A stretch of DNA of 41,360 bases. It comes from an uncultured Bacilli bacterium. GTDB taxonomy: Bacteria > Bacillota_I > Bacilli_A > RF39 > UBA660. The stretch is taken from the NCBI GenBank assembly GCA_947632685.1, contig CANRQD010000002.1:1-41360 (forward strand), read 5' to 3'. The notes below the pieces were generated by a model. That model did no database searches and was not told where the DNA came from. It saw only the letters and a list, made by a program, of their open reading frames with translations. A program made the position numbers and the translations under genes. Positions 5,222 to 37,157 of this stretch are shown here, piece by piece; positions within the stretch are counted from its first letter, which is position 1; the number at the start of each line of letters is the position of its first letter.

Positions 5222-5575
5222 TTATACTTTATTATCTTTATTATTTATTTTTTCTATAATATTATCAATATGCTCTCCATAAGAAATAGACTCATCATAT
5301 ATAAATTTTAATTCTGGTGTATGTCTTATTTCAATTCTTTCACTTAATTTTCCTCTTATGAAATGACTAGCTCCCTTTAAGGCTTCAATTGTCTTTTCTT
5401 TTCTTGCTTCATCTAAAACTGTAAAATATACTTTAGCATAACTCAAATCACTAGTAATATCCACTCCTGTTATTGTTACAAAAGATATATCTTCATCTTT
5501 TATCTCCCTCATCAATATATTACTAATTTCTTCCATAAATGTATGATTTAATCTCTCTATTTTAATATTTGCCAT
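5222..5575 (-). CDS. rbfA: Ribosome-binding factor A
   Basis: YAKVYFTVL and RHTPELKFIYDESI motifs, 117 aa. AGGAAGGA RBS. Confidence 0.9.
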   Translation of the reverse strand: MANIKIERLNHTFMEEISNILMREIKDEDISFVTITGVDITSDLSYAKVYFTVLDEARKEKTIEALKGASHFIRGKLSERIEIRHTPELKFIYDESISYGEHIDNIIEKINNKDNKV

Positions 5576-5597
5576 ATAACATCCTTCCTTTATAACA

Positions 5598-5606
5598 AGT
5601 ATATCA
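5598..5606 (-). promoter_or_regulatory. Candidate extended -10 promoter for rbfA
   Basis: The minus strand reads TGaTATACT about 20 nt upstream of the rbfA RBS. It is the only promoter-like element in the 89-bp divergent region on that strand. Confidence 0.4.
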
Positions 5607-5614
5607 AAAATATA

Positions 5615-5643
5615 TTTAAAAATAAATAAAATTGATGTATAAT
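5615..5643 (+). promoter_or_regulatory. Candidate promoter for the giant repeat gene
   Basis: TTTAAA (5615-5620), a 17-nt spacer, then TATAAT (5638-5643). The resulting leader before the SD would be very short. Confidence 0.3.
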
Positions 5644-5664
5644 AGCAACAAATGGAGGTTCATT

Positions 5665-8600
5665 ATGGAAACAAATAAAGAATTTAAAGAAAATGTAAAA
5701 AATAATGAAAAAAGAAAAAAATTTTTCATAGATAAATATAGAACTGATTTAAAACATTTAGATATTGTTTGTGATGATGCTACTATTGAAAAATTACTAT
5801 TAGAGGCTATAGAATCATTTAATGACATACCAATTACATTTTCGTCATATGGACTAAATTACTTAAAAGATAAATTAAAAACTTCAGAATCTAAATATAC
5901 TCCTAATAGTATATTTTCTGAAAATGAAATGGTAATATTAGAAAATTATCTAGAAAAAGATATAAATGGTAATTATTTAACCACAGAAGAAATTGCTAAA
6001 AAACTAAGTATAAATGTATTTGATGTAACACAAGCAGTATATAAATTACAAAATAAATTAAACTATCATAAAATTAAGAATATTTTTGGTGATTTTGAAA
6101 CTAAAATTATAGAAAGAAAGAGAAATATCAGAAAACAAGAAAAGCAAAATAATACTAAAAAAATAAAAGATATATCTGATAATGATATAGAAATTATAGG
6201 ATTATTTACAGGACAAATAAATGATATTTGTTTGGATATTGAAGAAATTGCCAATTTAAAAAACACTACTCCTAAAAAAATGCAAGAACAAATTATTAAT
6301 ATTTATGAACTATTAGAGGATAAAAAAAATTATGATAAATTACTTTTAAAATATCCGACTATTACTCAAATGTTAAGAATAAAAGGAACTGGATTAGGAT
6401 TAAGTTTTACAAATAAATTTAAGACAAATAGTTCTTCCAATAAAAAAACATTACATACTAACAATATTAGTAATAACGTTAAAATACTAAAATATTTTTA
6501 TCAACAACAACCTAATGGTACTTATTTATCTCCACAAGAAATTGCAAATTTATTAAATTATAATAATGTTAATGGTATATATTCAATAAAAAATAAAATT
6601 TTAAAAATGATAGATACTGATAACAAATATAAAGCTCAAATCTTAAAAGAATATCCTGAATTAGATAGTGATATGGAAATAAGAAATAATACTCATATTG
6701 TAAGACAAAGGAAAATTTCTAATGAAAAAATCAAAAAAGGTGCACAAATACTAAAATATTTTTATCAACCAAAACCAGATGGTACTTATTTATCTCCACA
6801 AGAAATTGCAGATTTATTAAATTGTAATAATATTAAAAGTATATATTCAATAAAAAGTGAAATTTTAAAAAAGATAGATACTAATAACGAATATAAGGTT
6901 CAAATCTTAAAAGAATATCCTGAATTAGATAGTGATATGGAAATAAGAAATAATACTCATATTGTAAGACAAAGGAAAATTTCTAATGAAAAAATCAAAA
7001 AAGATGCACAGATACTAAAATATTTTTATCAACCAAAGTTTGATGGCACTTATTTATCTTCAAATGAAATTGCCAAATTATTAAACTATACGAAAACTAA
7101 TGGTATATATTCAGTTAAAAATAGCATCTTAAAAAAAATAGATACTGATGACGAATATAAAGCTCAAATTTTAAAAGAATATCCTGAGTTAGATAATGAT
7201 ATGGAAATAAGAAATAATACTCACATTGTAAAACAAAAGAAAATTTCTAATGAAAAAATCAAAAAAGATACACAAATATTAAAATATTTTTATCAGCCAA
7301 AACCAGATGGTACTTATTTATCTCTACAAGAAATTGCCAAATTATTAAACTATACGAAAACTAACGGTATATATTCAGTTAAAAATAGAATCTTAAAAAA
7401 ATTAAATACTAATGACGAATATAAAGCTCAAATTTTACAAGAGTATCCTGAATTAAATAATGATATGGAAATAAGAAATAATACTCATATTGTAAAATCA
7501 AAAAAAAGTTCTAATGAAAAAATCAAAAAAGATGCACAATTACTTAAATATTTTTATCAACCAAAGCCAGATGGTACTTATTTTTCTACACATGAAATTG
7601 CAGATTTATTAAATTATAATAATATTAATAGTATATATTCAATGAAAAATAGAATCTTAAAAAGAATAAATGCTAATAATAAATATAAAAATCAAATTCT
7701 ACAAGAGTATCCTGAATTAGATAATGATATAGAAATAAGAAATAATACTCATATTGTAAAACAAAAGAAAATTTCTAATGAAAAAATCAAAAAAGATGCA
7801 CAATTACTTAAATATTTTTATCAACAACAACCTGATGGTACTTATTTTTCTACACAAAAAATTGCAGATTTAATAAATATAAGCACTCATAATATATATA
7901 CAATAAAAAAGAAAATCTTACAAAAAATAAATAATGATAATGAATATAAAGTTCAAATTTTACAAGAATACCCTGAATTAGATAATGATATGGAAATAAG
8001 AAATAATACTCATATTGTAAAATCAAAGAAAATTTCTAATAAAAAAATCAAAAAAGATGCACAATTACTAAAATACCTTTATCAACCTAATCCAGATGGT
8101 TCATATTTATCTACACATGAAATTGCAGATTTATTAAATTATAGTAATAATATTAATAATATATATACAGTGAAAAATAGAATCTTAAAAAAATTAAATA
8201 CTAATAACGAATATAAAACTCAAATCTTAAAAGAATATCCTGAATTAAATAATGATATGGAAATAAAAAATAATACTCCACAAAATAAAATTTCTAATGA
8301 AAAAATCAAAAAAGATGTACAATTACTAAAATATCTTTATCAACCAAAGCCAGATGGTTCATATTTATCCATACAAGAAATTGCAAATTTATTAAATTTA
8401 ACCGTAAATCATATATCTAAAACTAAAACCAAACTTTCAAAAGATTTAATTAATAATCAGGAATATAAAGTTCAAATTTTAAAAGAGTATCCTGAGTTAG
8501 ATAATGATATGGAAATAAGAAATAATACTCATATTGTAAGACCAAAGAAAATTTCTAATAAAAGAATTAAAAAAAATGTACAAATTCTTAAATACCTTTA

Positions 8601-11412
8601 TAAACCAAGGCCAGATGGTTCATATTTATCTCTACAAGAAATTGCAGATTTATTAAATTATAAAAATATTAGTACTATATATATAATGAAAAATAAAATT
8701 TTAAAAAAATTAAATACTAATGACGAATATAAAAATCAAGTTTTAAAAGAATATCCTGAATTAGATAGTGATATGGAAATAAAAAATAATATCCATATTG
8801 TACAACAACGAAAAATAATAAAAGATGTACAATTACTTAAATATTTTTATCAACAAAAATCAGATGGTACTTATTTTTCTACACAAGAAATTGCAAATTT
8901 ATTAAATTATAATAATATTAATAGTATATATTCAATGAAAAATAAAATTTTAAAAAAATTAAATACTAATGACGAATATAAAAATCAAATTTTAAGAGAG
9001 TATCCTGAATTAGATAATGATATGAAAATAAGAAATAATACTCATATTGTAAAATCAAAGAAAATTTCTAATGAAAAAATCAAAAAAGATGCACAATTAC
9101 TTAAATATTTTTATCAACAACAACCTGATGGTACTTATTTTTCTACACATGAAATTGCAGATTTAATAAATATAAGCACTCATAATATATATACAATAAA
9201 AAATAAAATCTTACAAAAAATAAATACTGATAATGAATATAAAGCTCAAATTTTACAAGAATACCCTGAATTAGATAATGATATTGAAATAAGAAATAAT
9301 ACTCATATTGTAAAACCAAAGAAAATTTCTAATGAAAAAATCAAAAAAGATGTACAATTACTAAAATATCTTTATCAACCAAAGCCAGATGGTTCATATT
9401 TATCTCTACAAGAAATTGCAAATTTATTAAATTTAACCTTAAATCATATATCTAAAACTAAAACCAAACTTTCAAAAGATTTAATTAATAATCAGGAATA
9501 TAAAGCTCAAATTTTAAAAGAGTATCCTGAGTTAGATAATGATATGGAAATAAGAAATAATACTCACATTGTAAAACAAAAGAAAATTTCTAATAAAGGA
9601 ATTAAAAAAGATGTGCAAATTCTTAAATACCTTTATCAATCAAAGCCAGATGGTTCATATTTATCTCTACAAGAAATTACAGATTTATTAAATTATAAAA
9701 ATATTAATACTATATATATAATAAAAAATAAACTTTTAAAAAAATTAAATACTGATGACGAATATAAAAATCAAATTTTAAAAGAGTATCCTGAATTAGA
9801 TAATGATATGGAAATAAGAAATAATATCCATATTGTACAACAAAGAAAAATAATAAAAGATGTACAATTACTAAAATATCTTTATCAACCAAAGCCAGAT
9901 GGTTCATATTTATCTCTACAAGAAATTGCAGACTTATTAAATTATAATAATATTCGTAGTATGTATACAATAAAAAGTGAAATTTTAAAAATGCTAGATG
10001 CTGATATCCAATATAAAGCTCAAATTTTAAAAGAATATCCTGAGTTAGATAATGATATGGAAATAAGAAATAATACTCAGATTGCAAGACAAAACAAAAT
10101 TTCTAATGAAAAAATCAAAAAGGATGCAAAAACTCTTAAATATTTTTATCAACCAAAATCTGATGGTACTTACTATTCAATAAAAGAAATAGCAGAAATA
10201 TTAAACATTAAATCTACTAGTTTATATTCAGTTAAAAGCCATATTTTTATTAAATTAAATCAAGATCAAAACTATAAAAATAAAATATTAGAAGAATACC
10301 CTAATTTATATGATGATATTGAAATACAAAAAAATATTCCTACTATTATTCCACAAGAAAAAATTAATAGAGATGTAGAAATTCTTAAATATATTTATAA
10401 ACCAAAATCTGATGGTACCTATTTCTCTATGGAAGATATTTCTAAATTAATAGATATAAATATATCTTATTTATACACCTCTAGAAACCGTATTTTAGAA
10501 AAATTAAATAATAGTTCTAATTATAAAGAGCAAATACTAGATGCATATCCTGAACTAGTGGATGATATTGAAAAGAAAAATAATAATCCAATTACAAAAC
10601 AAAAGAAAATTTCTAATGAAAAAATTAACAAAGATGTACAATTACTTAAATATTTTTATCAACCAAACCCAGATGGTACTTATTTATCTACACAAGAAAT
10701 TGGAAAATTATTAAATATAACTTCAAAAACAGCATCTCAAAATAAGTATTACATATTACAAAAATTAAATGATAGACAAAAATATAAAAAATTGATATTA
10801 GCTGAATATCCTGAATTATATAATGACATTGAAAAGAAAAATAATAAAGTTGTATTTACAGAAAAAGAAAAAGAATTTGCTGATTTACTATATACTGATA
10901 ATACAAAAATTATAGAACCAAAAGAAAATTATTGTAAAAAATTAAATATAAATTCTGCAACTTTTGAGATATTAAGAAATGGTGTAATGACTAAATTAGT
11001 TAAAAATAAAAATTTAAGAAAAACATATCCGAACTATGAAGTAGAAAATGAAATTATAGAAGACTATAATAATAATAAAAGTATTATATTATCTGAGCAA
11101 GAACTTTTAAATATAAAGCATAATTCAAGAAAATATGATATTCCAAATAACAATAAATATATTGATAATGATAGTAATAATAATTTAATGAAAGGAATTA
11201 GATTATTAGAAGAATCAAATTATGGTGACTATATTTCTCTATGTACTTATGAACAAAAGGCTATGATTGCATTAAAATTTGCATTCTTTAATAATACTTC
11301 ATATTCAACAAAATATATTTGCAATAAATTTAATGTAAATAGTGATGAACTTTCTATACTTATGAAAGAATGTTTAGAAATAAAAAATAAACAAAAAATA
11401 AAGGTTAAATAA
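5665..11412 (+). CDS. Giant (1,915 aa) soluble Lys-rich protein made of ~21 tandem sigma-70-region-4-like / LuxR-like HTH modules
   Basis: The ORF is uninterrupted in very AT-rich DNA. GGAGG at 5654-5658 lies 6 nt before ATG 5665, so the track start at 5632 is probably too early. It contains 17 in-frame tandem units plus diverged copies at both ends. I saw no signal peptide, TM segment or enzymatic motif. Confidence 0.8.
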   Translation: METNKEFKENVKNNEKRKKFFIDKYRTDLKHLDIVCDDATIEKLLLEAIESFNDIPITFSSYGLNYLKDKLKTSESKYTPNSIFSENEMVILENYLEKDINGNYLTTEEIAKKLSINVFDVTQAVYKLQNKLNYHKIKNIFGDFETKIIERKRNIRKQEKQNNTKKIKDISDNDIEIIGLFTGQINDICLDIEEIANLKNTTPKKMQEQIINIYELLEDKKNYDKLLLKYPTITQMLRIKGTGLGLSFTNKFKTNSSSNKKTLHTNNISNNVKILKYFYQQQPNGTYLSPQEIANLLNYNNVNGIYSIKNKILKMIDTDNKYKAQILKEYPELDSDMEIRNNTHIVRQRKISNEKIKKGAQILKYFYQPKPDGTYLSPQEIADLLNCNNIKSIYSIKSEILKKIDTNNEYKVQILKEYPELDSDMEIRNNTHIVRQRKISNEKIKKDAQILKYFYQPKFDGTYLSSNEIAKLLNYTKTNGIYSVKNSILKKIDTDDEYKAQILKEYPELDNDMEIRNNTHIVKQKKISNEKIKKDTQILKYFYQPKPDGTYLSLQEIAKLLNYTKTNGIYSVKNRILKKLNTNDEYKAQILQEYPELNNDMEIRNNTHIVKSKKSSNEKIKKDAQLLKYFYQPKPDGTYFSTHEIADLLNYNNINSIYSMKNRILKRINANNKYKNQILQEYPELDNDIEIRNNTHIVKQKKISNEKIKKDAQLLKYFYQQQPDGTYFSTQKIADLINISTHNIYTIKKKILQKINNDNEYKVQILQEYPELDNDMEIRNNTHIVKSKKISNKKIKKDAQLLKYLYQPNPDGSYLSTHEIADLLNYSNNINNIYTVKNRILKKLNTNNEYKTQILKEYPELNNDMEIKNNTPQNKISNEKIKKDVQLLKYLYQPKPDGSYLSIQEIANLLNLTVNHISKTKTKLSKDLINNQEYKVQILKEYPELDNDMEIRNNTHIVRPKKISNKRIKKNVQILKYLYKPRPDGSYLSLQEIADLLNYKNISTIYIMKNKILKKLNTNDEYKNQVLKEYPELDSDMEIKNNIHIVQQRKIIKDVQLLKYFYQQKSDGTYFSTQEIANLLNYNNINSIYSMKNKILKKLNTNDEYKNQILREYPELDNDMKIRNNTHIVKSKKISNEKIKKDAQLLKYFYQQQPDGTYFSTHEIADLINISTHNIYTIKNKILQKINTDNEYKAQILQEYPELDNDIEIRNNTHIVKPKKISNEKIKKDVQLLKYLYQPKPDGSYLSLQEIANLLNLTLNHISKTKTKLSKDLINNQEYKAQILKEYPELDNDMEIRNNTHIVKQKKISNKGIKKDVQILKYLYQSKPDGSYLSLQEITDLLNYKNINTIYIIKNKLLKKLNTDDEYKNQILKEYPELDNDMEIRNNIHIVQQRKIIKDVQLLKYLYQPKPDGSYLSLQEIADLLNYNNIRSMYTIKSEILKMLDADIQYKAQILKEYPELDNDMEIRNNTQIARQNKISNEKIKKDAKTLKYFYQPKSDGTYYSIKEIAEILNIKSTSLYSVKSHIFIKLNQDQNYKNKILEEYPNLYDDIEIQKNIPTIIPQEKINRDVEILKYIYKPKSDGTYFSMEDISKLIDINISYLYTSRNRILEKLNNSSNYKEQILDAYPELVDDIEKKNNNPITKQKKISNEKINKDVQLLKYFYQPNPDGTYLSTQEIGKLLNITSKTASQNKYYILQKLNDRQKYKKLILAEYPELYNDIEKKNNKVVFTEKEKEFADLLYTDNTKIIEPKENYCKKLNINSATFEILRNGVMTKLVKNKNLRKTYPNYEVENEIIEDYNNNKSIILSEQELLNIKHNSRKYDIPNNNKYIDNDSNNNLMKGIRLLEESNYGDYISLCTYEQKAMIALKFAFFNNTSYSTKYICNKFNVNSDELSILMKECLEIKNKQKIKVK
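6475..10870 (+). repeat. Coding tandem array of 17 units of 246-264 nt
   Basis: Unit starts read from the sequence: 6475, 6739, 7003, 7267, 7531, 7795, 8056, 8314, 8578, 8824, 9088, 9349, 9613, 9859, 10123, 10372, 10633. Units 1-16 measure 264, 261, 258, 249 or 246 nt, always a multiple of 3 (the end of unit 17, near 10870, is approximate). Long stretches are nucleotide-identical between units. Confidence 0.95.
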
Positions 11413-11433
11413 TTTTAGCCTTTATTTTTATTT
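11398..11433 (+). terminator. Weak AT-rich hairpin plus T-tract between the convergent giant gene and infB
   Basis: Stem ataaagg (11398-11404) pairs with cctttat (11419-11425), followed by ttttattt. The loop is large (14 nt) and overlaps the stop codon. Confidence 0.35.
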
Positions 11434-11447
11434 ATAAGAATAAATTG

Positions 11448-13577
11448 TTATCTTTTAATCTCTACTAATTCATAAACTTCAATGATATCTTTTTCTTTAT
11501 AATCTTGACAATTTTCTAAAGTAATTCCACAATCCATATCTTTTTTTACTTCTTTTACTTGATCTTTTTCATGTTGTAAGGTTTTTATTTTACCATTATA
11601 TATAACAGTTCCATCACGAATGATTCTAGCATTAGCATTATTTTTAATATTTCCTGTTAAAACATGACATCCAGCAATTAGACCTACTTTAGAAAATTTA
11701 AATATTTGTCTTATTTCCAAAGTACCAATTACTTTTTCTTCATATTCTGGATCAAGCATACCTTTCATTGCTGCTTCCATATCTTCTACTACTTTATAAA
11801 TAATATCATAATTTCTAATTTCTATTCCATATTCTTTGGCAATATCGGCTGTTTTAGAATTAGCACGTACATTAAATCCTATAATTATTGCATTAGAAGC
11901 TGAAGCTAGAACTACATCACTTTCAGTAATAGCGCCTACACTACTTCTAATTACATTTATTTTGACTCCTTCAACATCAATCTTTTCTAGAGAACTTTTT
12001 ACAGCTTCACTACTACCATTTACATCAGCCTTAATAATAACATTTATCTCTTTTATTCCTTCTTTGATTTGACCAAATAAATCTTCTAATGTCATACCAC
12101 TTTTATTAGTAACTTCATCTCTTGCCCTAATAGCTCTTTCTTCTGCAATTGACTTAGCCTGTTTTTCTGTTTCAAATGCCATAAATCTATCTCCTGCAGA
12201 TGGAACATCTGAAATACCTGTAATTTCTACTGGTGTAGATGGAAGAGCCTCTACTAAATTTTTTCCCAAATCATTTTTTAAAGTTCTTACCTTTCCATAG
12301 CTTGTACCAACTACAATAGGATCTCCTAATCTTAAAGTACCATTTTGAATTAATAATGATACAACAGAACCTATTTGTTTATCTTTACGTGATTCTATAA
12401 CTGTACCACTTGCATAACGATTTGGATTAGCCTTCAACTCTTGCATATCAGCAACTAACAAAATATTTGATAATAGTTCATCAATACCTAAACCTGATTT
12501 GGCTGATATTTTACAAACAATTGTATCTCCACCCCACTCTTCAGGCGTTAGACCATTTTCTACTAATTCAGTCATTATCTTATCAGGATTAGCACCTTCT
12601 TTATCAATTTTATTAATTGCAACTATAATAGGTACATTTGCTGCTTTAGCATGATCAATAGCTTCTTTAGTTTGAGGCATTACACCATCATCAGCAGCTA
12701 CTATAATAATAACTACATCTGTAACACTAGCACCACGTGCTCTCATTTCTGTAAAAGCTTCATGACCAGGCGTATCAATAAAAGTAATTTTTCTACCCTC
12801 ACATTCTACAGAATATGCTCCGATTGCTTGTGTAATTCCACCAGCTTCTGAGCTTACAACATTAGTCTTTCTAATTGTATCGAGTAAAGTTGTTTTTCCA
12901 TGATCTACATGTCCCATAATTGTAACAACCGGTGGTCTTGGTACTAAATCTTCTTCCTTATCTTCTAGCTCAAGATTTTCAAAATTTGAAATATCACTAG
13001 TTTCTTCTCTTTTTAAAATTTTATTGTAATCACTAACTAAAACTTCACATGTTTCAAAATCTATACTTTGATTTAAATTAGCCATAATACCTAAGGACAT
13101 AACTTTTTTTACTACTTCTGCACCACTTACATCTAATAAATTAGCAATATCAGCAATAGTCATTCCTTCTTTATATAAAATAACATTATCAGCTTTAATT
13201 GCCTCATTACTTTGAAGTTTTTCACGATGTTTATAAATCTTTTTTCTTTCCTTAATAAAATTATTTTTAGCTTCTTGTTTTTTTACTACCTTAGTTTTTA
13301 CTTTTTCAAATCGTTCTTGATTATCTAAATCAATATTAGCTTCTTCGGCAAGTGCTTCTGCTTTTTCACTTACCTCTTCATCATATAATTCATCTTCATT
13401 ATCATTACCAGTTATATAATCTTCTTGATCTTGTATTTCATTATCAAGTAGTATTATATCATCCTCTGATAACATAGATTCTTCATTTTCATAACTAATA
13501 CCTATTTTATCACATAAAGCCTTAACATCACTTATATCCATATTAACATCTTGTGCATAATCAATTAAACTCATCAT
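11448..13577 (-). CDS. infB: Translation initiation factor IF-2
   Basis: GTPase motifs GHVDHGKTTLLD, DTPGH and NKID, followed by C-terminal IF-2 domains. GAGGTG lies 6 nt upstream of ATG 13577. The track's GTG at 13586 lies inside that RBS. Confidence 0.95.
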   Translation of the reverse strand: MMSLIDYAQDVNMDISDVKALCDKIGISYENEESMLSEDDIILLDNEIQDQEDYITGNDNEDELYDEEVSEKAEALAEEANIDLDNQERFEKVKTKVVKKQEAKNNFIKERKKIYKHREKLQSNEAIKADNVILYKEGMTIADIANLLDVSGAEVVKKVMSLGIMANLNQSIDFETCEVLVSDYNKILKREETSDISNFENLELEDKEEDLVPRPPVVTIMGHVDHGKTTLLDTIRKTNVVSSEAGGITQAIGAYSVECEGRKITFIDTPGHEAFTEMRARGASVTDVVIIIVAADDGVMPQTKEAIDHAKAANVPIIVAINKIDKEGANPDKIMTELVENGLTPEEWGGDTIVCKISAKSGLGIDELLSNILLVADMQELKANPNRYASGTVIESRKDKQIGSVVSLLIQNGTLRLGDPIVVGTSYGKVRTLKNDLGKNLVEALPSTPVEITGISDVPSAGDRFMAFETEKQAKSIAEERAIRARDEVTNKSGMTLEDLFGQIKEGIKEINVIIKADVNGSSEAVKSSLEKIDVEGVKINVIRSSVGAITESDVVLASASNAIIIGFNVRANSKTADIAKEYGIEIRNYDIIYKVVEDMEAAMKGMLDPEYEEKVIGTLEIRQIFKFSKVGLIAGCHVLTGNIKNNANARIIRDGTVIYNGKIKTLQHEKDQVKEVKKDMDCGITLENCQDYKEKDIIEVYELVEIKR

Positions 13578-13587
13578 GCTAATCACC

Positions 13588-16126: not shown

Positions 16127-16744
16127 TTATTCAATACCTCTTTTTATTTTTGTATCATATATAACTAAGAATATAGATATAACTGCTTCTATGATAACTG
16201 ATATAAAATATATCTTCCAAAATAAATCAGTAACTATCATATTAAGTATAAATAACATATATATTATGTGATTAATTATCATAGAAAAAATATAACTAAA
16301 ATAAATTAAAATACCTTCTTTTTTAATTTCCATATTAGAAATTATATAATAATATATCGCAGAATTTACAAATAAACTAACAAAGTAACTAATAGATGAA
16401 GAACCTATTTCTATAAAATTCAACTGTTTACCTGTTAAATCCTCTATTAATATTATAAAGGCTATAATAATTAATGTCGAAATAATAATTGATTTAAAAC
16501 TATATTTAAATCCTAATTTTTTAGTTATATAATTACTAATAAATATAATAAATGGTAGTACAAATACAGAAAACGTTATACTGCAACCAAAAATATTAAA
16601 ATTATAATCATTTAAAGTAGTAGCTAGAATTGATATAGTTGCAAGTAAAAATGTAAATAGAAAAAATTCATTATCTATTTCTTTATTAATATTTTTACTT
16701 TTTTTAGATTTCTTTCTCTTAACAGATTTATCTTCCTTTTTCAT
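16127..16744 (-). CDS. Polytopic membrane protein, possibly VUT/YhhQ (DUF165) family transporter
   Basis: About 6 hydrophobic helices. FGCSITFSVFVLPFIIFISNYITKKLG resembles the YhhQ core by eye only. Has a Lys-rich N-terminus. An extended -10 (TGgTATTAT) lies upstream. Confidence 0.4.
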   Translation of the reverse strand: MKKEDKSVKRKKSKKSKNINKEIDNEFFLFTFLLATISILATTLNDYNFNIFGCSITFSVFVLPFIIFISNYITKKLGFKYSFKSIIISTLIIIAFIILIEDLTGKQLNFIEIGSSSISYFVSLFVNSAIYYYIISNMEIKKEGILIYFSYIFSMIINHIIYMLFILNMIVTDLFWKIYFISVIIEAVISIFLVIYDTKIKRGIE

Positions 16745-17772: not shown

Positions 17773-18120
17773 ATGAAAAAAAATAATAAAAATATTGAGC
17801 ATATAATAAGAAATATACTAATAGCTTTAACAATTATAAGTTTAGCAATAACAACATTAAACTTTACTTATTTAGTATATCAAGATAGAAATATTGAAAT
17901 AATAAATAACTTTTTAATTACATATGTTAATGGTCCAGTCTATATAATAGATAATATTTTAGTATTTATATTTTCTATAATATATATTATCTTAGCTATA
18001 AAATCTAAGAATGAACGCATATTAAAAATCTTTTTTAGTCTATTTGCAATTTTTACAACTATAACATCATTAACTCTTATAATAAATGTAATTGCTGATA
18101 TATTTCATATATTTACATAA
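17773..18120 (+). CDS. Small hypothetical membrane protein (3-4 TM)
   Basis: GGAG RBS. Begins 2 nt after the preceding gene. Hydrophobic throughout. Confidence 0.6.
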   Translation: MKKNNKNIEHIIRNILIALTIISLAITTLNFTYLVYQDRNIEIINNFLITYVNGPVYIIDNILVFIFSIIYIILAIKSKNERILKIFFSLFAIFTTITSLTLIINVIADIFHIFT

Positions 18121-18171: not shown

Positions 18172-19509
18172 TTAATTAAATCTTCTTTTAACAATATATG
18201 CTATTCCACATCCACTTACTGCTATTAAACCTAATAATAAATATAAGTTTATATCTGATGTATTTGGATTTGCCATAGCATTATTAATTTCTTCTACAGG
18301 AATATTTAAATCATCTTTAGATACACCTTTAATAATTCTATAATTTTTACCATTAATTTCTACTAGTAATACCTCAATAGTTTGTTCACCACTATTGCTT
18401 TCTAATGTTATCCCAGTATTATCTTTCATATCACTTGTTTTTACTTTAATAGGACTATTAGAAGTATTTACAACAGTTGTTGTTTCATCTACTTCTATAT
18501 CATGATCAGCATAACGTATAGTTTTACCAGCAGTTGTAACAGTACTATTTATAACCTTAACTAATCCCTCTTCAGAACTTGAATAATTTAATTTAGAGCC
18601 ATCTCCATTTACTTTAAGTGTTGTTTTATTGTTATCATTACCTTTTGAAATACTATCAATTGTAACACTAGCATTATCTGCAATAATAACTTCTCCTTCA
18701 TTTTTATCAGTTAAAGCTAAATCTCCTTTTGAATTACCTGTTGAAGTTAAATTAGTATTTCCTCCAATTGTTGATCCTGCTTTTAATTTTAACCCATAAT
18801 TTTTATTATTATTTGCTGTAATTTCACCATTATTACTATTTAAATTACCAGAAATTCCATAGGTATTATTATTATTAGTTATTACTTTACCTCCATTAAT
18901 AGTTAAACTATTATTTTCAGTAACCTCAATACCAGCACTCATTTTTGATACTTCAATAGTTCCTTGATTATTTACTTCAATATTAAGTCCAAAAATACCT
19001 AGTTCAGCTGTATTATCATGAATATTAATTTTTGAATTAGCTCCATCAACAATAATTTTACCTGTGTTATTCTCACCAGTACCAAAGATACTATCTTTAC
19101 CATCAACTATACCACCTGATATAACTTTAAGAATTCCATAATCACCTAGTTGAATTGTACCTTCTTCATCAAAAGTTATTTTACCTCCAGTTGTTACCTC
19201 TAATGTTGTAGATTGCTCATCACCAATAGTAAGTAATTTGTCACCAAGATTAATTTCTTCAGAAACAGTTATTGTTGAACCTTCTTTAATAACAATTTCA
19301 TCACATTTTTTCTTACCACTATTTCCCCAAGTTATAGTACTTGCCTCTTTAAATTGATTATTATCAGCAACAGTACATGTTATATAGCCACCTTTATTAA
19401 CAGCATAGTTTGGCTTTGTATTTGCTTCTGCGTAAACTGATGTAGACATTGAAATAGTTACAATTGTTAATATTGAAAATACTATAAATGCTAAAACACT
19501 CTTTTTCAT
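18172..19509 (-). CDS. Secreted G/N/T-rich repeat protein (beta-solenoid-like) with an NPNTSD C-terminal sorting signal
   Basis: Signal peptide ends ...STSVYA/EA. Contains imperfect Gly/Asn/Thr-rich strand repeats. C-terminus is NPNTSD + INLYLLLGLIAVSGCGIAYIV + KRRFN. Confidence 0.75.
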   Translation of the reverse strand: MKKSVLAFIVFSILTIVTISMSTSVYAEANTKPNYAVNKGGYITCTVADNNQFKEASTITWGNSGKKKCDEIVIKEGSTITVSEEINLGDKLLTIGDEQSTTLEVTTGGKITFDEEGTIQLGDYGILKVISGGIVDGKDSIFGTGENNTGKIIVDGANSKINIHDNTAELGIFGLNIEVNNQGTIEVSKMSAGIEVTENNSLTINGGKVITNNNNTYGISGNLNSNNGEITANNNKNYGLKLKAGSTIGGNTNLTSTGNSKGDLALTDKNEGEVIIADNASVTIDSISKGNDNNKTTLKVNGDGSKLNYSSSEEGLVKVINSTVTTAGKTIRYADHDIEVDETTTVVNTSNSPIKVKTSDMKDNTGITLESNSGEQTIEVLLVEINGKNYRIIKGVSKDDLNIPVEEINNAMANPNTSDINLYLLLGLIAVSGCGIAYIVKRRFN

Positions 19510-19671: not shown

Positions 19672-20763
19672 TTAATTAAATCTTTTTTTTACTGTATAAG
19701 TTAGTCCACAGCCACTTACTGCTATTAAACTTAATAATAAATATAAGTTGATATCTGATGTATCTGGATTTTCAATGTCTTCTGTTTTTTCTATAGTTTT
19801 ATAATTAGCAGTTAAAAATATATCAGCAATTACTGGACTATTTTCATCATATATATTTCCATCAGCAGTTGTGAAATTAACAAAATACATTTTCTCTAGT
19901 GCATTCTTAATATGAGATAAATCTATGTCAGATAAATTTCCATTCTCCTTTATAGCAATTTTTTCAATATTTTCACCATATTTAATAGTTACTACATAAA
20001 CATTAATATCATCTGATTCATCTGATTCTATTTGTTTACCACTAGTAATAGGTATAGATTCATAAATAATTTTATTATTATTATCAGTAATAACTACCTT
20101 ATTATCTTTCGCATAGATATGATTTATAGTACCTTCTTCATTTTTAATTTTTAAATTAGAAGATGTACTATTATCCATATATATAATTGCAGTAGAGGTT
20201 GAATTAATTTTACCATCCATTATAATTAGTGGTTCTTGCTCATTAGTGTTTGAGCTAGATTTTCCAACTTCAATACCATAAGTAGTATTTAAATTCAAAT
20301 CTTTAATATGAATAATTCCACCATTAGATATTAAACCGGAATATTTACAATCAGATATTGTAACCTTATCTAATATAAGAGTTCCTCCACCATAAGCTTG
20401 AGCACCTTGTTTTGGACTATGTTCTAAATTTATATTAGTTAAAGTTAAATTTCCATTTGTAGTTGCAGTAATGATAGATTGATCACCTGATAACTCCTCT
20501 TTAGATTTATTATACCAGTCATCCTTTCCTTTAATCGTATATCCATTTCCGTTAATTGTTAACTCTCTACTAACTTCTAAATGTCCAGATATTTCTATAT
20601 CTCCACCTAAAGTAATAGTTGGACATTCACCACTTAATGCACTTTTTAAATTTTCTTCATCTTTAATATCATTACAATTTACTGAATCTGCTTTGCAATT
20701 ATATGGAATTAATAATACTGCCATAGCAATAGTAAACAATAACATACCTTTTAAATTTTTCAT
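19672..20763 (-). CDS. Secreted repeat protein, paralogue of 18172-19509, with an NPDTSD sorting signal
   Basis: Has a signal peptide. GNLTLTNINL, GGTLILDKVTISD and GGIIHIKDLNL strand repeats resemble a parallel beta-helix. The C-terminus NPDTSD + INLYLLLSLIAVSGCGLTYTV + KKRFN is closely similar to its neighbour at the DNA level. Confidence 0.75.
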   Translation of the reverse strand: MKNLKGMLLFTIAMAVLLIPYNCKADSVNCNDIKDEENLKSALSGECPTITLGGDIEISGHLEVSRELTINGNGYTIKGKDDWYNKSKEELSGDQSIITATTNGNLTLTNINLEHSPKQGAQAYGGGTLILDKVTISDCKYSGLISNGGIIHIKDLNLNTTYGIEVGKSSSNTNEQEPLIIMDGKINSTSTAIIYMDNSTSSNLKIKNEEGTINHIYAKDNKVVITDNNNKIIYESIPITSGKQIESDESDDINVYVVTIKYGENIEKIAIKENGNLSDIDLSHIKNALEKMYFVNFTTADGNIYDENSPVIADIFLTANYKTIEKTEDIENPDTSDINLYLLLSLIAVSGCGLTYTVKKRFN

Positions 20764-23383: not shown

Positions 23384-23407
23384 AAAAAGGACTAATTAAT
23401 ATAGTCC
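23384..23407 (-). terminator. Terminator of the lipoprotein gene
   Basis: ggacta (23389-23394) pairs with tagtcc (23402-23407), followed by U5 on the minus strand. It overlaps the stop codon. Confidence 0.5.
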
Positions 23408-24010
23408 ATGTAATTTTTGTCTGTCTGTATCTGATATATCTTGTAATTTCCATTCATCGTCTTCTTTAGTAAGATTAAATGTAATAGTATAGGTAGTTTT
23501 ATCAGTAACATTTTTTAACTCACTTATTTTATATTCAACATAATCTTTTAATTCTTCTGTTTTATCTTTAACCTCATCAGCAGCATCTTCTACAGCATTA
23601 TCATCTTTATTATCTTCATTATCTGCTTCTTCTTTAGCATTATCTTCTTCTTGTTTAAATTCATCTTTATGTTGATCATAATATTCTTTTGATTTATTTA
23701 CAGAAGTAGCATAATCAAAAACCTCAATTTCAACATCAACAGTAGCAGTATCACCATCTATTTTTTCATCTTTAATTTTATAAGATAAATTTTGATATTG
23801 TTTTTCCATTAAAGAACGATATTCCTTTTTTTGATCATCATTCATTTCTGTATCATTATCCATAACAACATCTAGTTGAGTTAAAACATCATCATCTAAT
23901 TTTTGATATTTACTTAAAAAATCCTCTACTTTTTTACTTGGTGTATTTGCAGTATTACTACATCCTACCATTAAGAATAAACCTAGACAAATTACTAATA
24001 ATTTTTTCAT
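23396..24010 (-). CDS. Lipoprotein of unknown function with an acidic linker
   Basis: MKKLLVICLGLFLMVGC lipobox. GGAGG lies 7 nt upstream of ATG 24010, so the track start at 24025 is unlikely. Confidence 0.75.
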   Translation of the reverse strand: MKKLLVICLGLFLMVGCSNTANTPSKKVEDFLSKYQKLDDDVLTQLDVVMDNDTEMNDDQKKEYRSLMEKQYQNLSYKIKDEKIDGDTATVDVEIEVFDYATSVNKSKEYYDQHKDEFKQEEDNAKEEADNEDNKDDNAVEDAADEVKDKTEELKDYVEYKISELKNVTDKTTYTITFNLTKEDDEWKLQDISDTDRQKLHGLY

Positions 24011-24062
24011 AATTATTCCTCCCATTTATATAATGGAAGAATTTTAAAAATTTATACCAAAA

Positions 24063-25881: not shown

Positions 25882-26271
25882 TTACGATTTATTTCCTTTA
25901 TCAATAATATAATTTAAAAACATAGATAATATAATAAACATAAACACTAAAGATAAGATAAAATAATTATCTTTTAAATATTTCATACTAATTGTATATA
26001 AAATAGTATTAGAGGTATATATATTATAATATATAAAACTAACATACATAGTTGCTACTATAATAGAAATATTATTTAAAATAGATTCTTTTATATTTTC
26101 TTTATTAGTAATAAAAAAAGTTAATTCAAATACAAATGTACATAATACTAATAGCAAAAACAATATTCCTTGCCAATTAGATTCATATATAAATGGTAAC
26201 ATTTCAATAGTTAAAAAACTTAATAGTATAAGTGATATTATACTAACATAAAATATAATTTTTTTTATCAT
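25882..26271 (-). CDS. Small hypothetical membrane protein (4 TM), translationally coupled to the upstream AAA+ gene
   Basis: TAATG stop/start overlap at 26269-26273. Hydrophobic throughout. Confidence 0.6.
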   Translation of the reverse strand: MIKKIIFYVSIISLILLSFLTIEMLPFIYESNWQGILFLLLVLCTFVFELTFFITNKENIKESILNNISIIVATMYVSFIYYNIYTSNTILYTISMKYLKDNYFILSLVFMFIILSMFLNYIIDKGNKS

Positions 26272-31141: not shown

Positions 31142-32260
31142 TTAATTATTTTCTAAATTCCATGTTATTCCATTATCATTACTAATAAATATTAACTCTT
31201 TATCTTCATATCCATCTTTATTAGAATTAATTTGATAAACTGAACATTTAATTTTTAAATTGTTTTTTTCATAATATGGAGCTTTTTCTATACTAATATA
31301 ATCAACATTATCGTTTTTATAGTTAAAAACAGCTGCTGTAAAAGTTTTACCACTATCATTAGTAACATATAAACCAGTTTTACTACTATCTAAATAGATT
31401 TTACCAGTATTAATTGCAAATCCCAAGCTCTTATTTAGAAAAATAAATTTTGCCTCATTACTAACTTGTATTACATCATCAGATACAACATAGAAATTTT
31501 TTCCCTTATCTTTACTTCTTAAAACATGAACTAACATATTTTGCCCTAATACATTATCAACTTTACTAAATCTTAATATAGTTTTACCAAATTTCTTTTC
31601 ATATAGTACTTCTTCATTTTCTGGTAATAAATAATTATCATTTTCATTAAAATTACTAGAATCATCAATATTTACATCATAATTATTTTTATCAATTATA
31701 TTTCCATCTTTATCTTTAATAAAAGTTTCTGTTCTTTTAGATTTTATTTTTCCATTATTATCATAATATGTATATTCAACACTATCTGGAATATTTGGAC
31801 TAGAAAAAGGATCATAGCCACCTTTACCAAAGTCACCATGTATTTTTACTTTTGTCCCCATTAAAAGAAATCCATAATAATCATAATAATCAACATCTAC
31901 ATTAAGAAATGAACGAACAACAGCTACATATTTTTTGTTATCTACAATAACTGTATGTTCTGGACAATATGAAAAGGCAAATATAAATAATATAATTCTC
32001 CAAAAAAATAAACATAAAACTAAAATTATAAAAGAAACAATTAAAATAATAATTTTTCTAGTTTTAGATGATTTTATAAAAAATTGAATCATTCCTATTA
32101 TAAAACCAATTAATAACAATATTAATACTAAAACTATAAACCAAATTCTAAATCTAATATTTATTAAATATAATATAAAATTTAATAATATAAATATTCC
32201 TATTAATATTAAATCAGATAAGATTATATTACTTTTTATTTTATTAAAAACTTTTTTCAT
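31142..32260 (-). CDS. Membrane-anchored protein with Asp-box (BNR-like) repeats
   Basis: Three N-terminal TM helices. The extracellular part carries SKDKGKNF, NDSGKTF and SNDNGITW (SxDxGxTW/F-type). Confidence 0.6.
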   Translation of the reverse strand: MKKVFNKIKSNIILSDLILIGIFILLNFILYLINIRFRIWFIVLVLILLLIGFIIGMIQFFIKSSKTRKIIILIVSFIILVLCLFFWRIILFIFAFSYCPEHTVIVDNKKYVAVVRSFLNVDVDYYDYYGFLLMGTKVKIHGDFGKGGYDPFSSPNIPDSVEYTYYDNNGKIKSKRTETFIKDKDGNIIDKNNYDVNIDDSSNFNENDNYLLPENEEVLYEKKFGKTILRFSKVDNVLGQNMLVHVLRSKDKGKNFYVVSDDVIQVSNEAKFIFLNKSLGFAINTGKIYLDSSKTGLYVTNDSGKTFTAAVFNYKNDNVDYISIEKAPYYEKNNLKIKCSVYQINSNKDGYEDKELIFISNDNGITWNLENN

Positions 32261-34332: not shown

Positions 34333-35577
34333 CTATTTATTTAATCCGTCAATAATGGAATCAACTAATTTATCAGTATTAGCTTTTTCCTTATGTAGAT
34401 AACAATCAATTAAAAATTTTGTATCCATCAGCATTAATGCTATTTTTTTGTGAGAAGCGTCACTAGAATCATTGTTTCTAGCTTTACTCTCTGCATATCC
34501 CATATATACAAAATTATCATTTAAATCAAATCTATTATCTTTTTTGTTATATGGAACAATAAATGCATTATATATTTTATCAGTATCATATTCCAACGGT
34601 TTATCAAAATTATGAGGATTGCTACAATAATCACCATATGTAATTTGTTTATCTATATCTTCAGCTCCAGGTAATTTTCCATTATCTATAACTGCATATT
34701 TATAATATTTAGAATCAATAATAAATAATTCTCTTTCATTTTTTCTTTTTATAATTGTATCAGGTCTCATATGAAGATTAGGTACTTTTTCAGGTAAATT
34801 CACCCATTTTAATTCAGGTCTATAATTGTTTATTAAATCATTACCAAATACAGAATCAACCATCTTTTCCCAAGCATAATTATAATTTGTAGTTAATATA
34901 TCATTAACACTTTCGGTAGAATCATCTTCAAATTCACTTTTTATAATTTGTATCATGTTATTAAGTAATGTTTTTTTTCTATCATTAAAGGATTTTCTTA
35001 ATTCATCGTTCAATATTTGAATATAATAATTCTTATTTTTATCGTCATAGTCATAATCTATTTTTTCAATATTACCAAATAACCATCCTATTTGTTCAAT
35101 ACTATGATTAATACACAAAGCATGAATTTCAGTAATAATATTATCAATAGTTCTTTTTTTATCTACATATGGATTTAAATAAATAGCACCCTGGTCTGAA
35201 AATAAGGGAGTTGTCGAAAAAGTTCTTTTCCAATTTATTTTTCCTCTTTGAGACTGCATATATATTTTTTCTTTTTCATTATATAATCCATTACTTATAT
35301 AATCATTCAAAATCCATAAATAAGCATGAATAGGAAAACCAGTAATACTACCTATTTGATTTTCATAGTCATAATCAATATCTTTAATTTTTGTTAAAGA
35401 CATCGTATATAGAATATCAATTACTGCTTTTCTTTGAAGATTTGGAAATTTATCTGATGGAATATCATAACCAAGTGGAAAAAATATAGATATATTTTCC
35501 TTGTCAAATTTAATTCCTACTCGTCCAAATTCATCATTAATACAGCTTTTACAAATCCATATTTTCTTGTTATTCAT
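34333..35577 (-). CDS. LlaJI-R2 / McrC-like PD-(D/E)xK endonuclease subunit
   Basis: RPDTIIKRKNERELFIIDSKYYKY (D...IDSK catalytic-type motif, about nt 34696-34719). An 8-nt overlap (ATGAATAA) with the upstream McrB-like gene. Confidence 0.7.
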   Translation of the reverse strand: MNNKKIWICKSCINDEFGRVGIKFDKENISIFFPLGYDIPSDKFPNLQRKAVIDILYTMSLTKIKDIDYDYENQIGSITGFPIHAYLWILNDYISNGLYNEKEKIYMQSQRGKINWKRTFSTTPLFSDQGAIYLNPYVDKKRTIDNIITEIHALCINHSIEQIGWLFGNIEKIDYDYDDKNKNYYIQILNDELRKSFNDRKKTLLNNMIQIIKSEFEDDSTESVNDILTTNYNYAWEKMVDSVFGNDLINNYRPELKWVNLPEKVPNLHMRPDTIIKRKNERELFIIDSKYYKYAVIDNGKLPGAEDIDKQITYGDYCSNPHNFDKPLEYDTDKIYNAFIVPYNKKDNRFDLNDNFVYMGYAESKARNNDSSDASHKKIALMLMDTKFLIDCYLHKEKANTDKLVDSIIDGLNK

Positions 35578-37156: not shown

Positions 37157-37157
37157 A

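Follow-up and report, generated by a model that had tools for sequence, protein, structure and literature searches.

What would a bacterium do with a single protein chain that repeats a small helix-turn-helix (HTH) module about 20 times behind a head that looks like a sigma factor? This question is raised by one gene in the stretch of DNA that we analyzed (41,360 nucleotides, hereafter the window). Few bacterial DNA-binding proteins have been studied as thoroughly as sigma factors and GerE-type regulators, and, to our knowledge, descriptions of both always give one region-4-type domain per chain. A sequence-only reading of the locus had not recognized its architecture from any characterized protein, and our database and literature searches agree, with no member of the family named by any database source searched and no description of such a protein found in the literature; the 5- to 21-fold reiteration of modules behind a sigma-like head was found neither named nor described.

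The single 5,748-nt open frame that had been singled out in AT-rich DNA is borne out, running on the forward strand from 5665 to 11412 (stop codon included) and encoding 1,915 aa (226.6 kDa, pI 9.24). A TTG opens the frame at 5632 (5632-11412), and the ATG at 5665 is the start that gives 1,915 aa. Because a random codon at the gene's composition (49% A, 31% T; 20% G+C) is a stop with p = 0.104, the probability of 1,915 codons without a stop is ~1e-91, and the five other frames of the gene hold 105-323 stops each. Comparison with the closest orthologue gives a dN/dS of 0.47 over the N-terminus and of 0.25 over the C-terminus. A consensus scan returned as many promoter-like sites in the region as shuffled sequence would, while a terminator scan after the gene gave no match, leaving a weak AAAGG...CCTTT hairpin alone between the convergent stops, and Rfam and tRNA scans of the window found nothing. 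With its Shine-Dalgarno and ATG, intact frame and conserved family, this is a real chromosomal gene of an uncultured gut bacterium of the Bacilli with very AT-rich DNA (~23% G+C), and the features of the locus are as follows.

5222..5575 (-): rbfA, divergent neighbor (Pfam RBFA 1.3e-34; conserved context)
5615..5643 (+): promoter-like TTTAAA-17-TATAAT, a consensus match only, within the 89 bp that separate the gene from the divergent rbfA
5654..5658 (+): Shine-Dalgarno GGAGG, 6 nt 5' of the ATG at 5665, by direct sequence reading
5665..5889 (+): N-domain, aa 1-75, four predicted helices, sigma-domain-2-like (AlphaFold2, Foldseek, hhalign)
5911..6096 (+): HTH-A, aa 83-144, first diverged copy, at the position of sigma region 3 (alignments, AlphaFold2, hhalign)
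6172..6387 (+): HTH-B, aa 170-241, second diverged copy, at the position of sigma region 4 (alignments, AlphaFold2, Foldseek)
6481..10902 (+): array of 17 tandem units of 83-88 aa, aa 273-1746 (LKY[FL]Y-motif parsing, AlphaFold2, repeat analysis)
7537..9864 (+): recent block duplication inside the array (codon-aligned identity matrix; exact repeats at offsets 1035 and 1293)
10129..10902 (+): units 15-17, old and diverged (nucleotide identity of 63-74% to the other units)
10873..11058 (+): HTH-C, aa 1737-1798, third diverged copy (family alignments; weak GerE/FixJ/NarL-type PDB matches)
11182..11382 (+): terminal sigma-region-4.1/4.2-like module, aa 1840-1906 (Pfam in relatives, NCBIfam SigK, hhalign)
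11448..13586 (-): infB (IF-2), convergent neighbor (Pfam IF-2 and GTP_EFTU; conserved context)

The sequence-only reading had described 17 head-to-tail units of 82-88 aa flanked by two diverged copies on either side, in a strongly Lys-rich protein with no signal peptide or transmembrane segment. The count of 17 stood, whereas the lower bound did not, as parsing gives 83 aa for the shortest unit. All four diverged copies are present and homologous to the units by a unit profile that, with these copies included in its building, matched 21 stretches in the whole protein. Lysine makes up 14.3% of residues and the net charge is +66. Because Kyte-Doolittle means over 19-residue windows reach 0.92 at most and the N-terminal end is hydrophilic (mean -1.85), we see neither a transmembrane segment nor a signal peptide, as had been claimed, and a surface or antigenic-variation repeat protein of low-G+C Bacilli and Mollicutes was ruled out with these export signals missing.

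Each unit is laid out as helix 1 (..LKYFY), a loop (QPKPDGTYLS), the HTH (QEIAxLLN, turn, SIYxxKxxILKKL), a helix 4 bearing an acidic cap (EYKxQILKEYPELDxD) and a Lys-rich linker, in a charge pattern of basic HTH, acidic cap and basic linker. The columns that vary between units concentrate in two places, the turn and the exposed side of helix 3, and core positions are conserved. At the nucleotide level, Tandem Repeats Finder reported a period of 264 nt at 6485-10720 (16.3 copies, 81% matches). Units 5, 6, 8 and 9 (7537-8829) pair with units 10, 11, 12 and 13 (8830-9864) at 92, 97, 96 and 95% nucleotide identity, and the orthologue P0002 carries a hybrid 132-aa unit. The differences in unit length are all multiples of 3 nt, and dN/dS between units is fairly high (median 0.58). 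With no exact repeat longer than 104 nt, the array is within reach of a short-read assembly, and the copy number of 17 is as read from one metagenome assembly. Together, the block duplication and lineage-specific unit types show, at the level of sequence comparison, that array length changes by unequal recombination.

Profile and model evidence supports the modules as sigma-region-4 / LuxR-GerE-type HTH domains, as had been proposed from their layout. The profile check suggested with that proposal came out in two ways: the whole protein passes Pfam Sigma70_r4, its best family (62.7 bits against a cut-off of 24.1, a score summed from many weak stretches), whereas units taken singly all stay below the Pfam gathering thresholds, their matches being scattered over many HTH families. 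Among single-unit matches at E <= 1, all of them sub-threshold, GerE was the most frequent (12 of 43 units) and Sigma70_r4 was matched by 5 of the 43; the best single-unit GerE match had E 8.1e-5, with the scores seen falling below the 23.5-bit cut-off. Against PDB chains, the unit profile aligned with a primary sigma factor (SigA1, E ~0.2) along its recognition helix and C-terminal tail, and also with VraR, GerE-type and RcsB chains (E 0.2-0.8). Structure prediction, likewise suggested earlier, gave a two-unit AlphaFold2 model (pLDDT 84) in which each unit is predicted as helix, loop, helix, turn, long helix and fourth helix, that is, an HTH plus a fourth helix. This model has a pTM of 0.48 and a linker pLDDT < 50, with inter-unit geometry undefined, and global Foldseek alignments are confused for that reason; nothing significant was found in the PDB with the two-unit model, the best local matches being a DnaA DNA-binding domain and a SigA-r4 chimera (E > 0.6).

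A new finding, missed in the sequence-only reading, is the sigma-like N-terminal head. In AlphaFold2 and Foldseek comparisons, the protein opens with ~75 aa that resemble sigma domain 2, and its N-terminal ~245 aa as a whole resemble a complete small sigma factor in domain order and fold. The N-domain is predicted to form helices at aa 4-13, 15-31, 38-51 and 56-71 and carries the family motif M..EIV..iKNGD..R..FF..KLK ... F(S/Y)xY..N.(I/L)K. It is followed by HTH-A, the N-terminal module closest by sequence to the array units, with an IFG/IFPN motif at its end, then by a spacer predicted as one helix of ~20 residues (aa 144-162), and then by HTH-B, whose DIE(I/L)IGxYTGQINDICLDIEE(I/L)A, followed by KYP, is the most conserved N-terminal motif of the family. 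With the model of aa 1-248 (pLDDT 86.8), the best 50 Foldseek matches in the PDB were all sigma factors (E 1e-3 to 3e-2, probability up to 0.99), the alignments to whole sigma factors spanned 210-280 columns, and most named matches in a viral structure library were also sigma factors. The E-values of these sigma matches are modest (~1e-3), and TM-scores reach only ~0.2 because the inter-domain orientation differs from that of sigma factors. By hhalign, regions 2.2-3.1 of FliA are covered, aa 46-71 fall on regions 2.2-2.4, and F(S/Y)xY..N.(I/L)K is tentatively placed opposite FTTYAVQRIRG of FliA.

Sequence profiles are more reserved about this head. Pfam Sigma70_r2 gave no match at E <= 10 on the whole protein nor at E <= 1 on the N-terminus, where no Sigma70_r2 or r3 profile passes, and TIGR02937 scored 12.5 bits against a cut-off of 42.9, with its match falling in a unit, outside the sigma-2-like head. 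The N-domain profile found only weak MarR, winged-HTH and sigma matches among PDB sequences. The region 2.3 tryptophan pair of primary sigma factors is presumably not kept (FSSYGLNYLKDKL versus FSTYATWWIRQAI), and we take this pair to be absent from FliA as well.

At the other end of the protein, HTH-C is kept across the family (LTxxE...T....A..L.I.......L.....KI..N..L.K.YP), and the terminal module carries the family motif GI..LE.SIY.DYVSLCT.EQKAMLALRLGFFN...FS..DIA..F.V...EV..LT.ECL. For the terminal region, Sigma70_r4 is the top Pfam family among relatives, with matches in 11/23 (best E 1.4e-5), positions 140-221 of the 227 in the NCBIfam SigK model match the C-terminus of P0009 (E 2e-5), and hhalign sets the module in register with region 4 of B. 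subtilis SigA (E 4.6e-4). By these alignments, the terminal module is the most canonical region-4.1/4.2 look-alike of the whole protein.

The homologue search that the sequence-only reading had recommended uncovered a family. An exhaustive HMM search of 1.84 billion proteins, clustered at 50% identity, returned 37 clusters of 178-1,915 aa with 1-21 matched stretches each, the protein described here being the longest member. Complete members share the N-domain and C-domain on either side of an array of variable length, and all retain at least ~3 canonical units (at least 5 profile matches); the same architecture occurs in independent assemblies from rabbit gut, human gut and other samples. A word-indexed homologue search with the whole protein found two relatives only, and the N- and C-domain alignments gave one short fragment each. 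A scan of genome contigs with poorly specific N-terminal peptide patterns matched only the Lapin-017 MAG, and the exact protein is not on record in public assemblies.

The position of the gene is also conserved. It adjoins rbfA in 6/6 relatives checked (P0002, P0003, P0009, P0010, P0020, P0011), and in 5/6 of them it is flanked by rbfA and infB and runs on the strand opposite to theirs. This opposite-strand synteny with nusA, infB and rbfA may reflect only vertical inheritance. Separately, the gene's synonymous divergence is low relative to that of its neighbors.

From this evidence we lean towards a sigma-70-derived, basic, cytoplasmic and multivalent DNA binder that possibly still docks on RNA polymerase, a function that we infer. 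As a proposed mechanism, many HTH modules strung on one chain like beads would bind DNA multivalently, a picture that depends on the two-unit pTM and linker pLDDT given above. The third helix of each HTH would make the DNA contact, and the basic linkers would contribute further, non-specific affinity. The positions at which the units differ would be those that read bases in sigma region 4.2, and with base-reading positions thus varying from unit to unit, the array could cover ~200 bp or bridge many sites. The charge pattern and the variable positions are, as sequence features, consistent with multivalent DNA binding.

Docking on the RNA polymerase core is possible since the sigma-like head is kept, and would leave the array on DNA upstream of the -35 element; no other step of the argument is as weak as this one. 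A bolder version, which we put forward tentatively, has a working sigma factor or RNA-polymerase-bound factor with its own ~20-HTH array. Once on core polymerase, this array would read or coat upstream DNA over ~200 bp, or it would tie together several polymerases or many -35-like sites.

A strict alternative sigma factor is a doubtful reading, in which promoter-specific initiation would fall to the N-terminal core, with the array as an accessory extension, perhaps regulatory or auto-inhibitory, comparable to ECF sigma factors with C-terminal extensions. It draws on the sigma-factor domain order and predicted fold of the N-terminal 248 aa and on HTH-B and the terminal module holding the family's most conserved motifs, but neither Sigma70_r2 nor TIGR02937 passes on the N-terminus, the melting and -10-reading residues of regions 2.3/2.4 do not seem recognizably kept, and the HTH-A/HTH-B spacer is a single predicted helix of ~20 residues. 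Moreover, the array looks obligatory rather than accessory because all complete members retain several canonical units.

We consider it unlikely that the modules bind proteins rather than DNA, serving as a scaffold or decoy for region-4 partners (the beta-flap tip, anti-sigma factors, activators or phage region-4 appropriators) and so as a sink, mimic or polymerase-gathering hub. The overall basic charge of the protein and of its linkers argues against such a role, as does the placement of variation on the recognition-helix face and not on the conserved face that would bind partners. What speaks for it is the resemblance of the modules to sigma region 4, C-terminal tail included, the conserved hydrophobic positions in helix 1 and helix 4, and the invariant EYPELDxD acidic cap, an unlikely DNA contact. 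In sigma region 4, the helices that match helix 1 and helix 4 form the flap-binding side. Such a role would also sit poorly with PADLOC, which gave no consistent defense-system match, and with a fixed housekeeping position in all relatives checked, where no defense island or mobile element was seen. Along the same lines, PADLOC and PHROGs gave only summed weak HTH matches in the protein encoded in the window and none in P0010 or P0020, and an anti-phage or phage origin was rejected with no consistent family matches in either resource.

An RNA or ribosome binder tied to the neighboring genes, whose basic HTH array would have rRNA or mRNA as its target, is very unlikely. The neighbors nusA, infB and rbfA act on nascent RNA and on maturation of the 30S subunit, and the adjacency to rbfA and infB persists among the relatives checked despite ~30% identity between members, with very basic linkers also in keeping with RNA binding. 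However, the gene lies on the opposite strand to its neighbors and is therefore not co-transcribed with them, the Pfam and NCBIfam profiles gave no RNA-binding domain match, and we know of no characterized sigma-4 / GerE HTH that reads anything other than double-stranded DNA. Finally, an artifact or decaying sequence (a mis-assembled repeat, a pseudogene or a functionless selfish coding repeat) is exceedingly improbable, since the metagenomic source, the 92-97% identity of units within the block, the hybrid unit of P0002 and the fairly high inter-unit dN/dS are outweighed by a 5.7-kb frame intact in 20% G+C DNA, unit-length differences that keep the frame, conserved fold-core positions, exact repeats of at most 104 nt and the recurrence of the architecture in independent rabbit gut, human gut and other assemblies, and mis-assembly and pseudogene were rejected on the intact frame and this recurrence.

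If the preferred reading of a multivalent DNA binder is true, bacteria would have in this protein an equivalent of the poly-zinc-finger or TALE-like array readers of eukaryotes, as well as a candidate nucleoid or transcription organizer in a genome-reduced gut lineage with few known regulators. If RNA polymerase docking is true as well, ideas on how upstream DNA is read during initiation would need revision, and a polymerase-docked array would represent a mode of promoter selection or transcription-focus organization unseen in characterized bacteria, with array length tuned by recombination in a small-genome lineage of uncultured gut Bacilli. The family also offers a natural experiment on the growth of HTH arrays via unequal recombination and, because its position between rbfA and infB is fixed, a clean lineage marker.

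Compared with known systems, the N-terminal ~245 aa are like small group-3 (FliA/SigD/WhiG; PDB 1sc5, 1rp3, 6pfv, 9a7s) and ECF (group 4) sigma factors in domain order and predicted fold, and the likeness to sigma-70 factors extends to the regions 4.1/4.2 of the terminal module, to the FliA 2.2-3.1 register and to the Sigma70_r4 score of the whole protein. Sigma-70 factors differ in having one region-4-type module against ~20 here, in a protein that is ~8 times longer, and in having the region 2 and 3 profile matches and region 2.3 aromatics that the head described here lacks or apparently lacks, respectively. The units are like the HTH domains of LuxR, GerE and FixJ (PF00196; GerE 1fse and the C-terminal domains of VraR and NarL) in HTH layout and in a helix 3 that would act as the recognition helix, yet a known GerE-family protein has a single domain of this kind, in most cases preceded by a receiver or ligand-binding domain, and acts as a dimer, whereas here a 17- to 21-fold tandem stands behind a sigma-like head; the units also have in addition a family-specific fourth helix with its EYPELDxD cap.

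Tandem-repeat DNA readers include TAL effectors, BurrH/Bat proteins, poly-zinc-finger proteins and the HTH repeats of Myb and Pipsqueak (Psq). The protein is like these in design, with many small modules per chain, variation at presumed base-contacting positions and recombination that alters length, and has no sequence or fold relationship to them. In TAL effectors, two-helix repeats of 33-35 aa with repeat-variable di-residues stack into one continuous superhelix, in contrast to the 83-88-aa independent HTH units here, with 4-5 predicted helices, a flexible disordered linker and no defined inter-unit geometry, so that the units fall outside the TAL-effector repeat type, and the evidence here does not extend to the one-module-to-one-site code of such readers. 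Myb and Psq arrays have 2-4 copies, against 17 array units here. A broader frame is offered by the proposal that sigma factors, TFB and TFIIB are homologous and that sigma factors contain HTH repeats (Burton and Burton, PMC4581349). In the available text of that paper, this four-HTH-repeat view is an evolutionary hypothesis on ordinary sigma factors and includes no expanded-array protein. By analogy, the protein described here looks like that principle (PMC4581349) taken much further, to ~21 HTH modules on one chain.

The giant gene at 5665-11412 (+) encodes a protein of HTH modules and a sigma-like head that is best described as sigma-70-family-derived, with a sigma-2-like head and ~21 HTH modules, and the sigma character of both of its ends is new relative to the earlier sequence-only reading. 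ORF listing of the window gave one open frame here, 5632-11412 (+), whose first ATG at 5665 yields 1,915 aa and so matches the single 5,748-nt frame reported previously. GGAGG can be read 6 nt 5' of this ATG, and a consensus scan placed TTTAAA-17-TATAAT at 5615-5643. With 49% A and 31% T in the coding strand, a random codon is a stop with p = 0.104 and 1,915 codons without a stop have a probability of ~1e-91, while the remaining five frames hold 105-323 stops. The product (226.6 kDa, pI 9.24, net charge +66) is 14.3% Lys, bearing out its description as Lys-rich, and its hydropathy profile contains no segment hydrophobic enough for a signal peptide or TM segment, as had also been claimed; it is a real, conserved, cytoplasmic and basic protein.

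We evaluated the 17 tandem units by profile and by structure. Against Pfam, the whole protein had Sigma70_r4 as its top family (62.7 bits, cut-off 24.1, summed over many weak stretches), whereas no single unit passed threshold, the commonest sub-threshold matches being GerE (12/43), Fe_dep_repress (6/43) and Sigma70_r4 (5/43). Against PDB chains, the unit profile aligned at E ~0.2 both with GerE-type response-regulator domains and, in the primary sigma factor 9dvs_G, with recognition helix and C-terminal tail (...ALRKLRHPNR--NSILKEY opposite ...ILKKLNedkeYKekILKEY), and hhalign with B. subtilis SigA region 4 gave the same register. An AlphaFold2 model of two consecutive units (32-row alignment, pLDDT 84.2) revealed five elements per unit, namely a 15-residue helix, a 10-residue loop (QPKPDGTYL), an HTH (7-residue helix, turn, 17-residue helix), a 10-residue fourth helix and a low-confidence linker helix. 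With a pTM of 0.48 and linker pLDDT < 50, the model indicates that units would behave as independent beads on a string and not as a solenoid. Because Foldseek with this model found no significant match, the region-4 assignment of the units rests on profiles, register and context; at this level the proposal of sigma-region-4/GerE-type HTH modules is supported.

An AlphaFold2 model of aa 1-248 (16-row family alignment, pLDDT 86.8) comprises a four-helix head (4-71) and two HTH domains (86-141 and 172-243) separated by a long helix (144-162), and its best 50 Foldseek matches in PDB were all sigma factors (SigD, sigma-S, sigma-32, SigA, WhiG, FliA), with 210-280 aligned columns, probability up to 0.99, E 1e-3 to 3e-2, and TM-scores of ~0.2 because domain orientation differs. 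Sigma factors were also most of the named matches in a viral structure library. By hhalign, the N-terminal alignment placed aa 46-140 opposite 52-143 of E. coli FliA, that is, regions 2.2-2.4 and 3.1, at a pairwise E of 1.8e-3; the Pfam Sigma70_r2 profile matched neither the protein nor its N-terminus. The HTH module at aa 83-144 holds the region 3 position, yet is the N-terminal module nearest the array units by sequence, so that the first 145 aa may alternatively be ECF-like ('sigma-2 plus sigma-4'). For the C-terminal region, Pfam (Sigma70_r4 the top family in relatives, with 11/23 matching), NCBIfam (positions 140-221 of the 227 in the SigK model against the C-terminus of the relative P0009, E 2e-5) and hhalign (YVslCTxeQKamLALRlGfFN... 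with a SigA stretch, E 4.6e-4) agree in pointing to a sigma-region-4-like character.

A word-indexed search with the window protein returned only two relatives:

P0002, 1,804 aa, from NCBI MAG GCA_947624535.1, 'uncultured Bacilli bacterium', rabbit
P0003, 1,115 aa

Searching 1.84 billion representatives exhaustively with an HMM of the units (E <= 1e-3) revealed 37 clusters of 178-1,915 aa with 1-21 matched stretches each, the window protein being the longest with 21; it thus belongs to a conserved family. Complete members share an N-domain (M..EIV..iKNGD..R..FF..KLK) with two HTH modules after it, an array of variable length and a ~115-aa C-domain ending in CTxEQKAMLALRLGFFN...DIA..F.V..EEV..LT.ECL. 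Nine further metagenomic loci, human gut included, lie in host DNA of 23-35% G+C, and their complete genes encode 629-1,186 aa. No member carries a name in the sources searched and our literature search found no description of such a protein, in keeping with the earlier statement that the architecture was not recognised from any characterised protein.

Within the array, Tandem Repeats Finder gave a period of 264 nt, 16.3 copies and 81% matches, and protein parsing confirmed 17 units (aa 273-1746), of 83-88 aa rather than the 82-88 aa first given. Since no exact repeat exceeds 104 nt, the assembly is plausible, 17 being the count as assembled. Units 5/10, 6/11, 8/12 and 9/13 share 92, 97, 96 and 95% DNA identity, revealing a recent block duplication:

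7537-9864 (+), higher-order duplication, units 5, 6, 8, 9 against units 10, 11, 12, 13, with unit 7 partnerless

Units 1/2 (93%) and 3/4 (90%) are also close, and units 15-17 have diverged (63-74%) and appear old. The consensus differs by lineage (FLKCLYKPQDNGKYLS in P0003, LLTEKQETLLKELAKNPNI in the relative P0011), a pattern we read from the sequences as concerted evolution or independent expansion. In P0002, aa 460-591 form one hybrid 132-aa unit, in which a complete unit is joined to a second unit's C-terminal half and which could be an unequal crossing-over scar or a mis-assembly. Array length is driven by recombination. A 125-aa antisense ORF within the array (9710-10087, -) is most likely a by-product of repeat composition and no gene.

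The surrounding gene content is that of an ordinary chromosome (ddl, Mur ligase, rbfA, infB, nusA, PBP5-type carboxypeptidase, glmS, dtd), at 20-30% G+C throughout and with negative GC skew over nearly all 41,360 nt; no tRNA gene or Rfam family at gathering score was found in the window (1-41360). Divergent from rbfA (89-bp spacer) and convergent with infB, the giant gene splits the usual nusA-infB-rbfA order. This opposite-strand interruption of nusA-ylxR-infB-rbfA, seen in the window (5222-13586) and at relatives' loci L001, L002, L004, L006 and L008, means that the 89-bp divergent spacer must supply rbfA with a promoter of its own. Position and orientation are identical in P0002, P0003, P0009, P0010 and P0020 at only ~30% N-domain identity, which argues for long-standing vertical inheritance; the P0011 gene lies just across rbfA, on its other side, the layout seen at L009, where the gene sits beyond rbfA instead of between rbfA and infB. 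Elsewhere the window holds a restriction-modification-like cluster of four genes and seven ORFs (115-445 aa) without a Pfam match at the thresholds used, the first of which has a counterpart (204-216 aa, likewise without a Pfam match) after an Rce1-like gene in L002 and L009:

within 34333-40326 (-), LlaJI-type endonuclease
within 34333-40326 (-), McrB-like AAA_5 protein with HTH_73 domain
within 34333-40326 (-), 254-aa ORF, no Pfam match
within 34333-40326 (-), 804-aa C5-cytosine methylase / Eco57I/N6-adenine methylase fusion
16127-16744, 17773-18120, 18172-19509, 19672-20763, 23396-24025, 25882-26271 and 31142-32260, ORFs without a Pfam match

Comparison with P0002 gave dN/dS values of 0.47 (N-terminus) and 0.25 (C-terminus), against 0.14 for rbfA; between units the median was 0.58. 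Near-invariant unit positions fall in the fold core (L3, K4, Y5, Y7, G13, Y15, E20, I21, Y50, K51, L55, Y58, P59, D64), while variability clusters in the turn and at exposed helix 3 positions, which by the hhalign register would correspond to the residues with which region 4.2 reads -35. Synonymous divergence from the Lapin MAG (L001, the rabbit-gut genome with the closest orthologue) was about half that of the flanking genes, with pS (proportion of synonymous differences) of 0.24-0.26 in the conserved ends (5665-6414, 10900-11409) against 0.63 in rbfA (5222-5575) and 0.43 in infB (11448-11822). Constraint on codons or composition could account for this, as could an exchange of the giant gene more recent than that of its neighbours' divergence.

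We propose that each module would contact DNA via helix 3 and Lys-rich linkers would add affinity, such that the array would cover a long DNA stretch or bridge many sites; more speculatively, the head might still dock on RNA polymerase core, which would bring the array to the DNA upstream of -35. The leading rival, though an improbable one, is a strict alternative sigma factor to which the array is an accessory tail, and a protein-protein scaffold or decoy for region 4 partners seems somewhat less probable again. An RNA- or ribosome-linked role is suggested by the neighbouring genes, but a functional link does not follow from position alone because the strands differ, and we consider it quite unlikely. 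That so long an open frame is an artefact or pseudogene is hardly credible.

Of the known systems, factors of the sigma-70 family and HTH regulators of the GerE type come closest to this proposed DNA-binding array, whereas TALE, poly-zinc-finger and Myb arrays share a similar design principle and no homology. Fold, domain order and region 4 place the protein in the sigma family, and the region-2 sequence profile does not; the building blocks are familiar, while a sigma-like head with 5-21 region-4-type modules is without a description that we found, and the giant protein is therefore a variation on sigma and HTH types.
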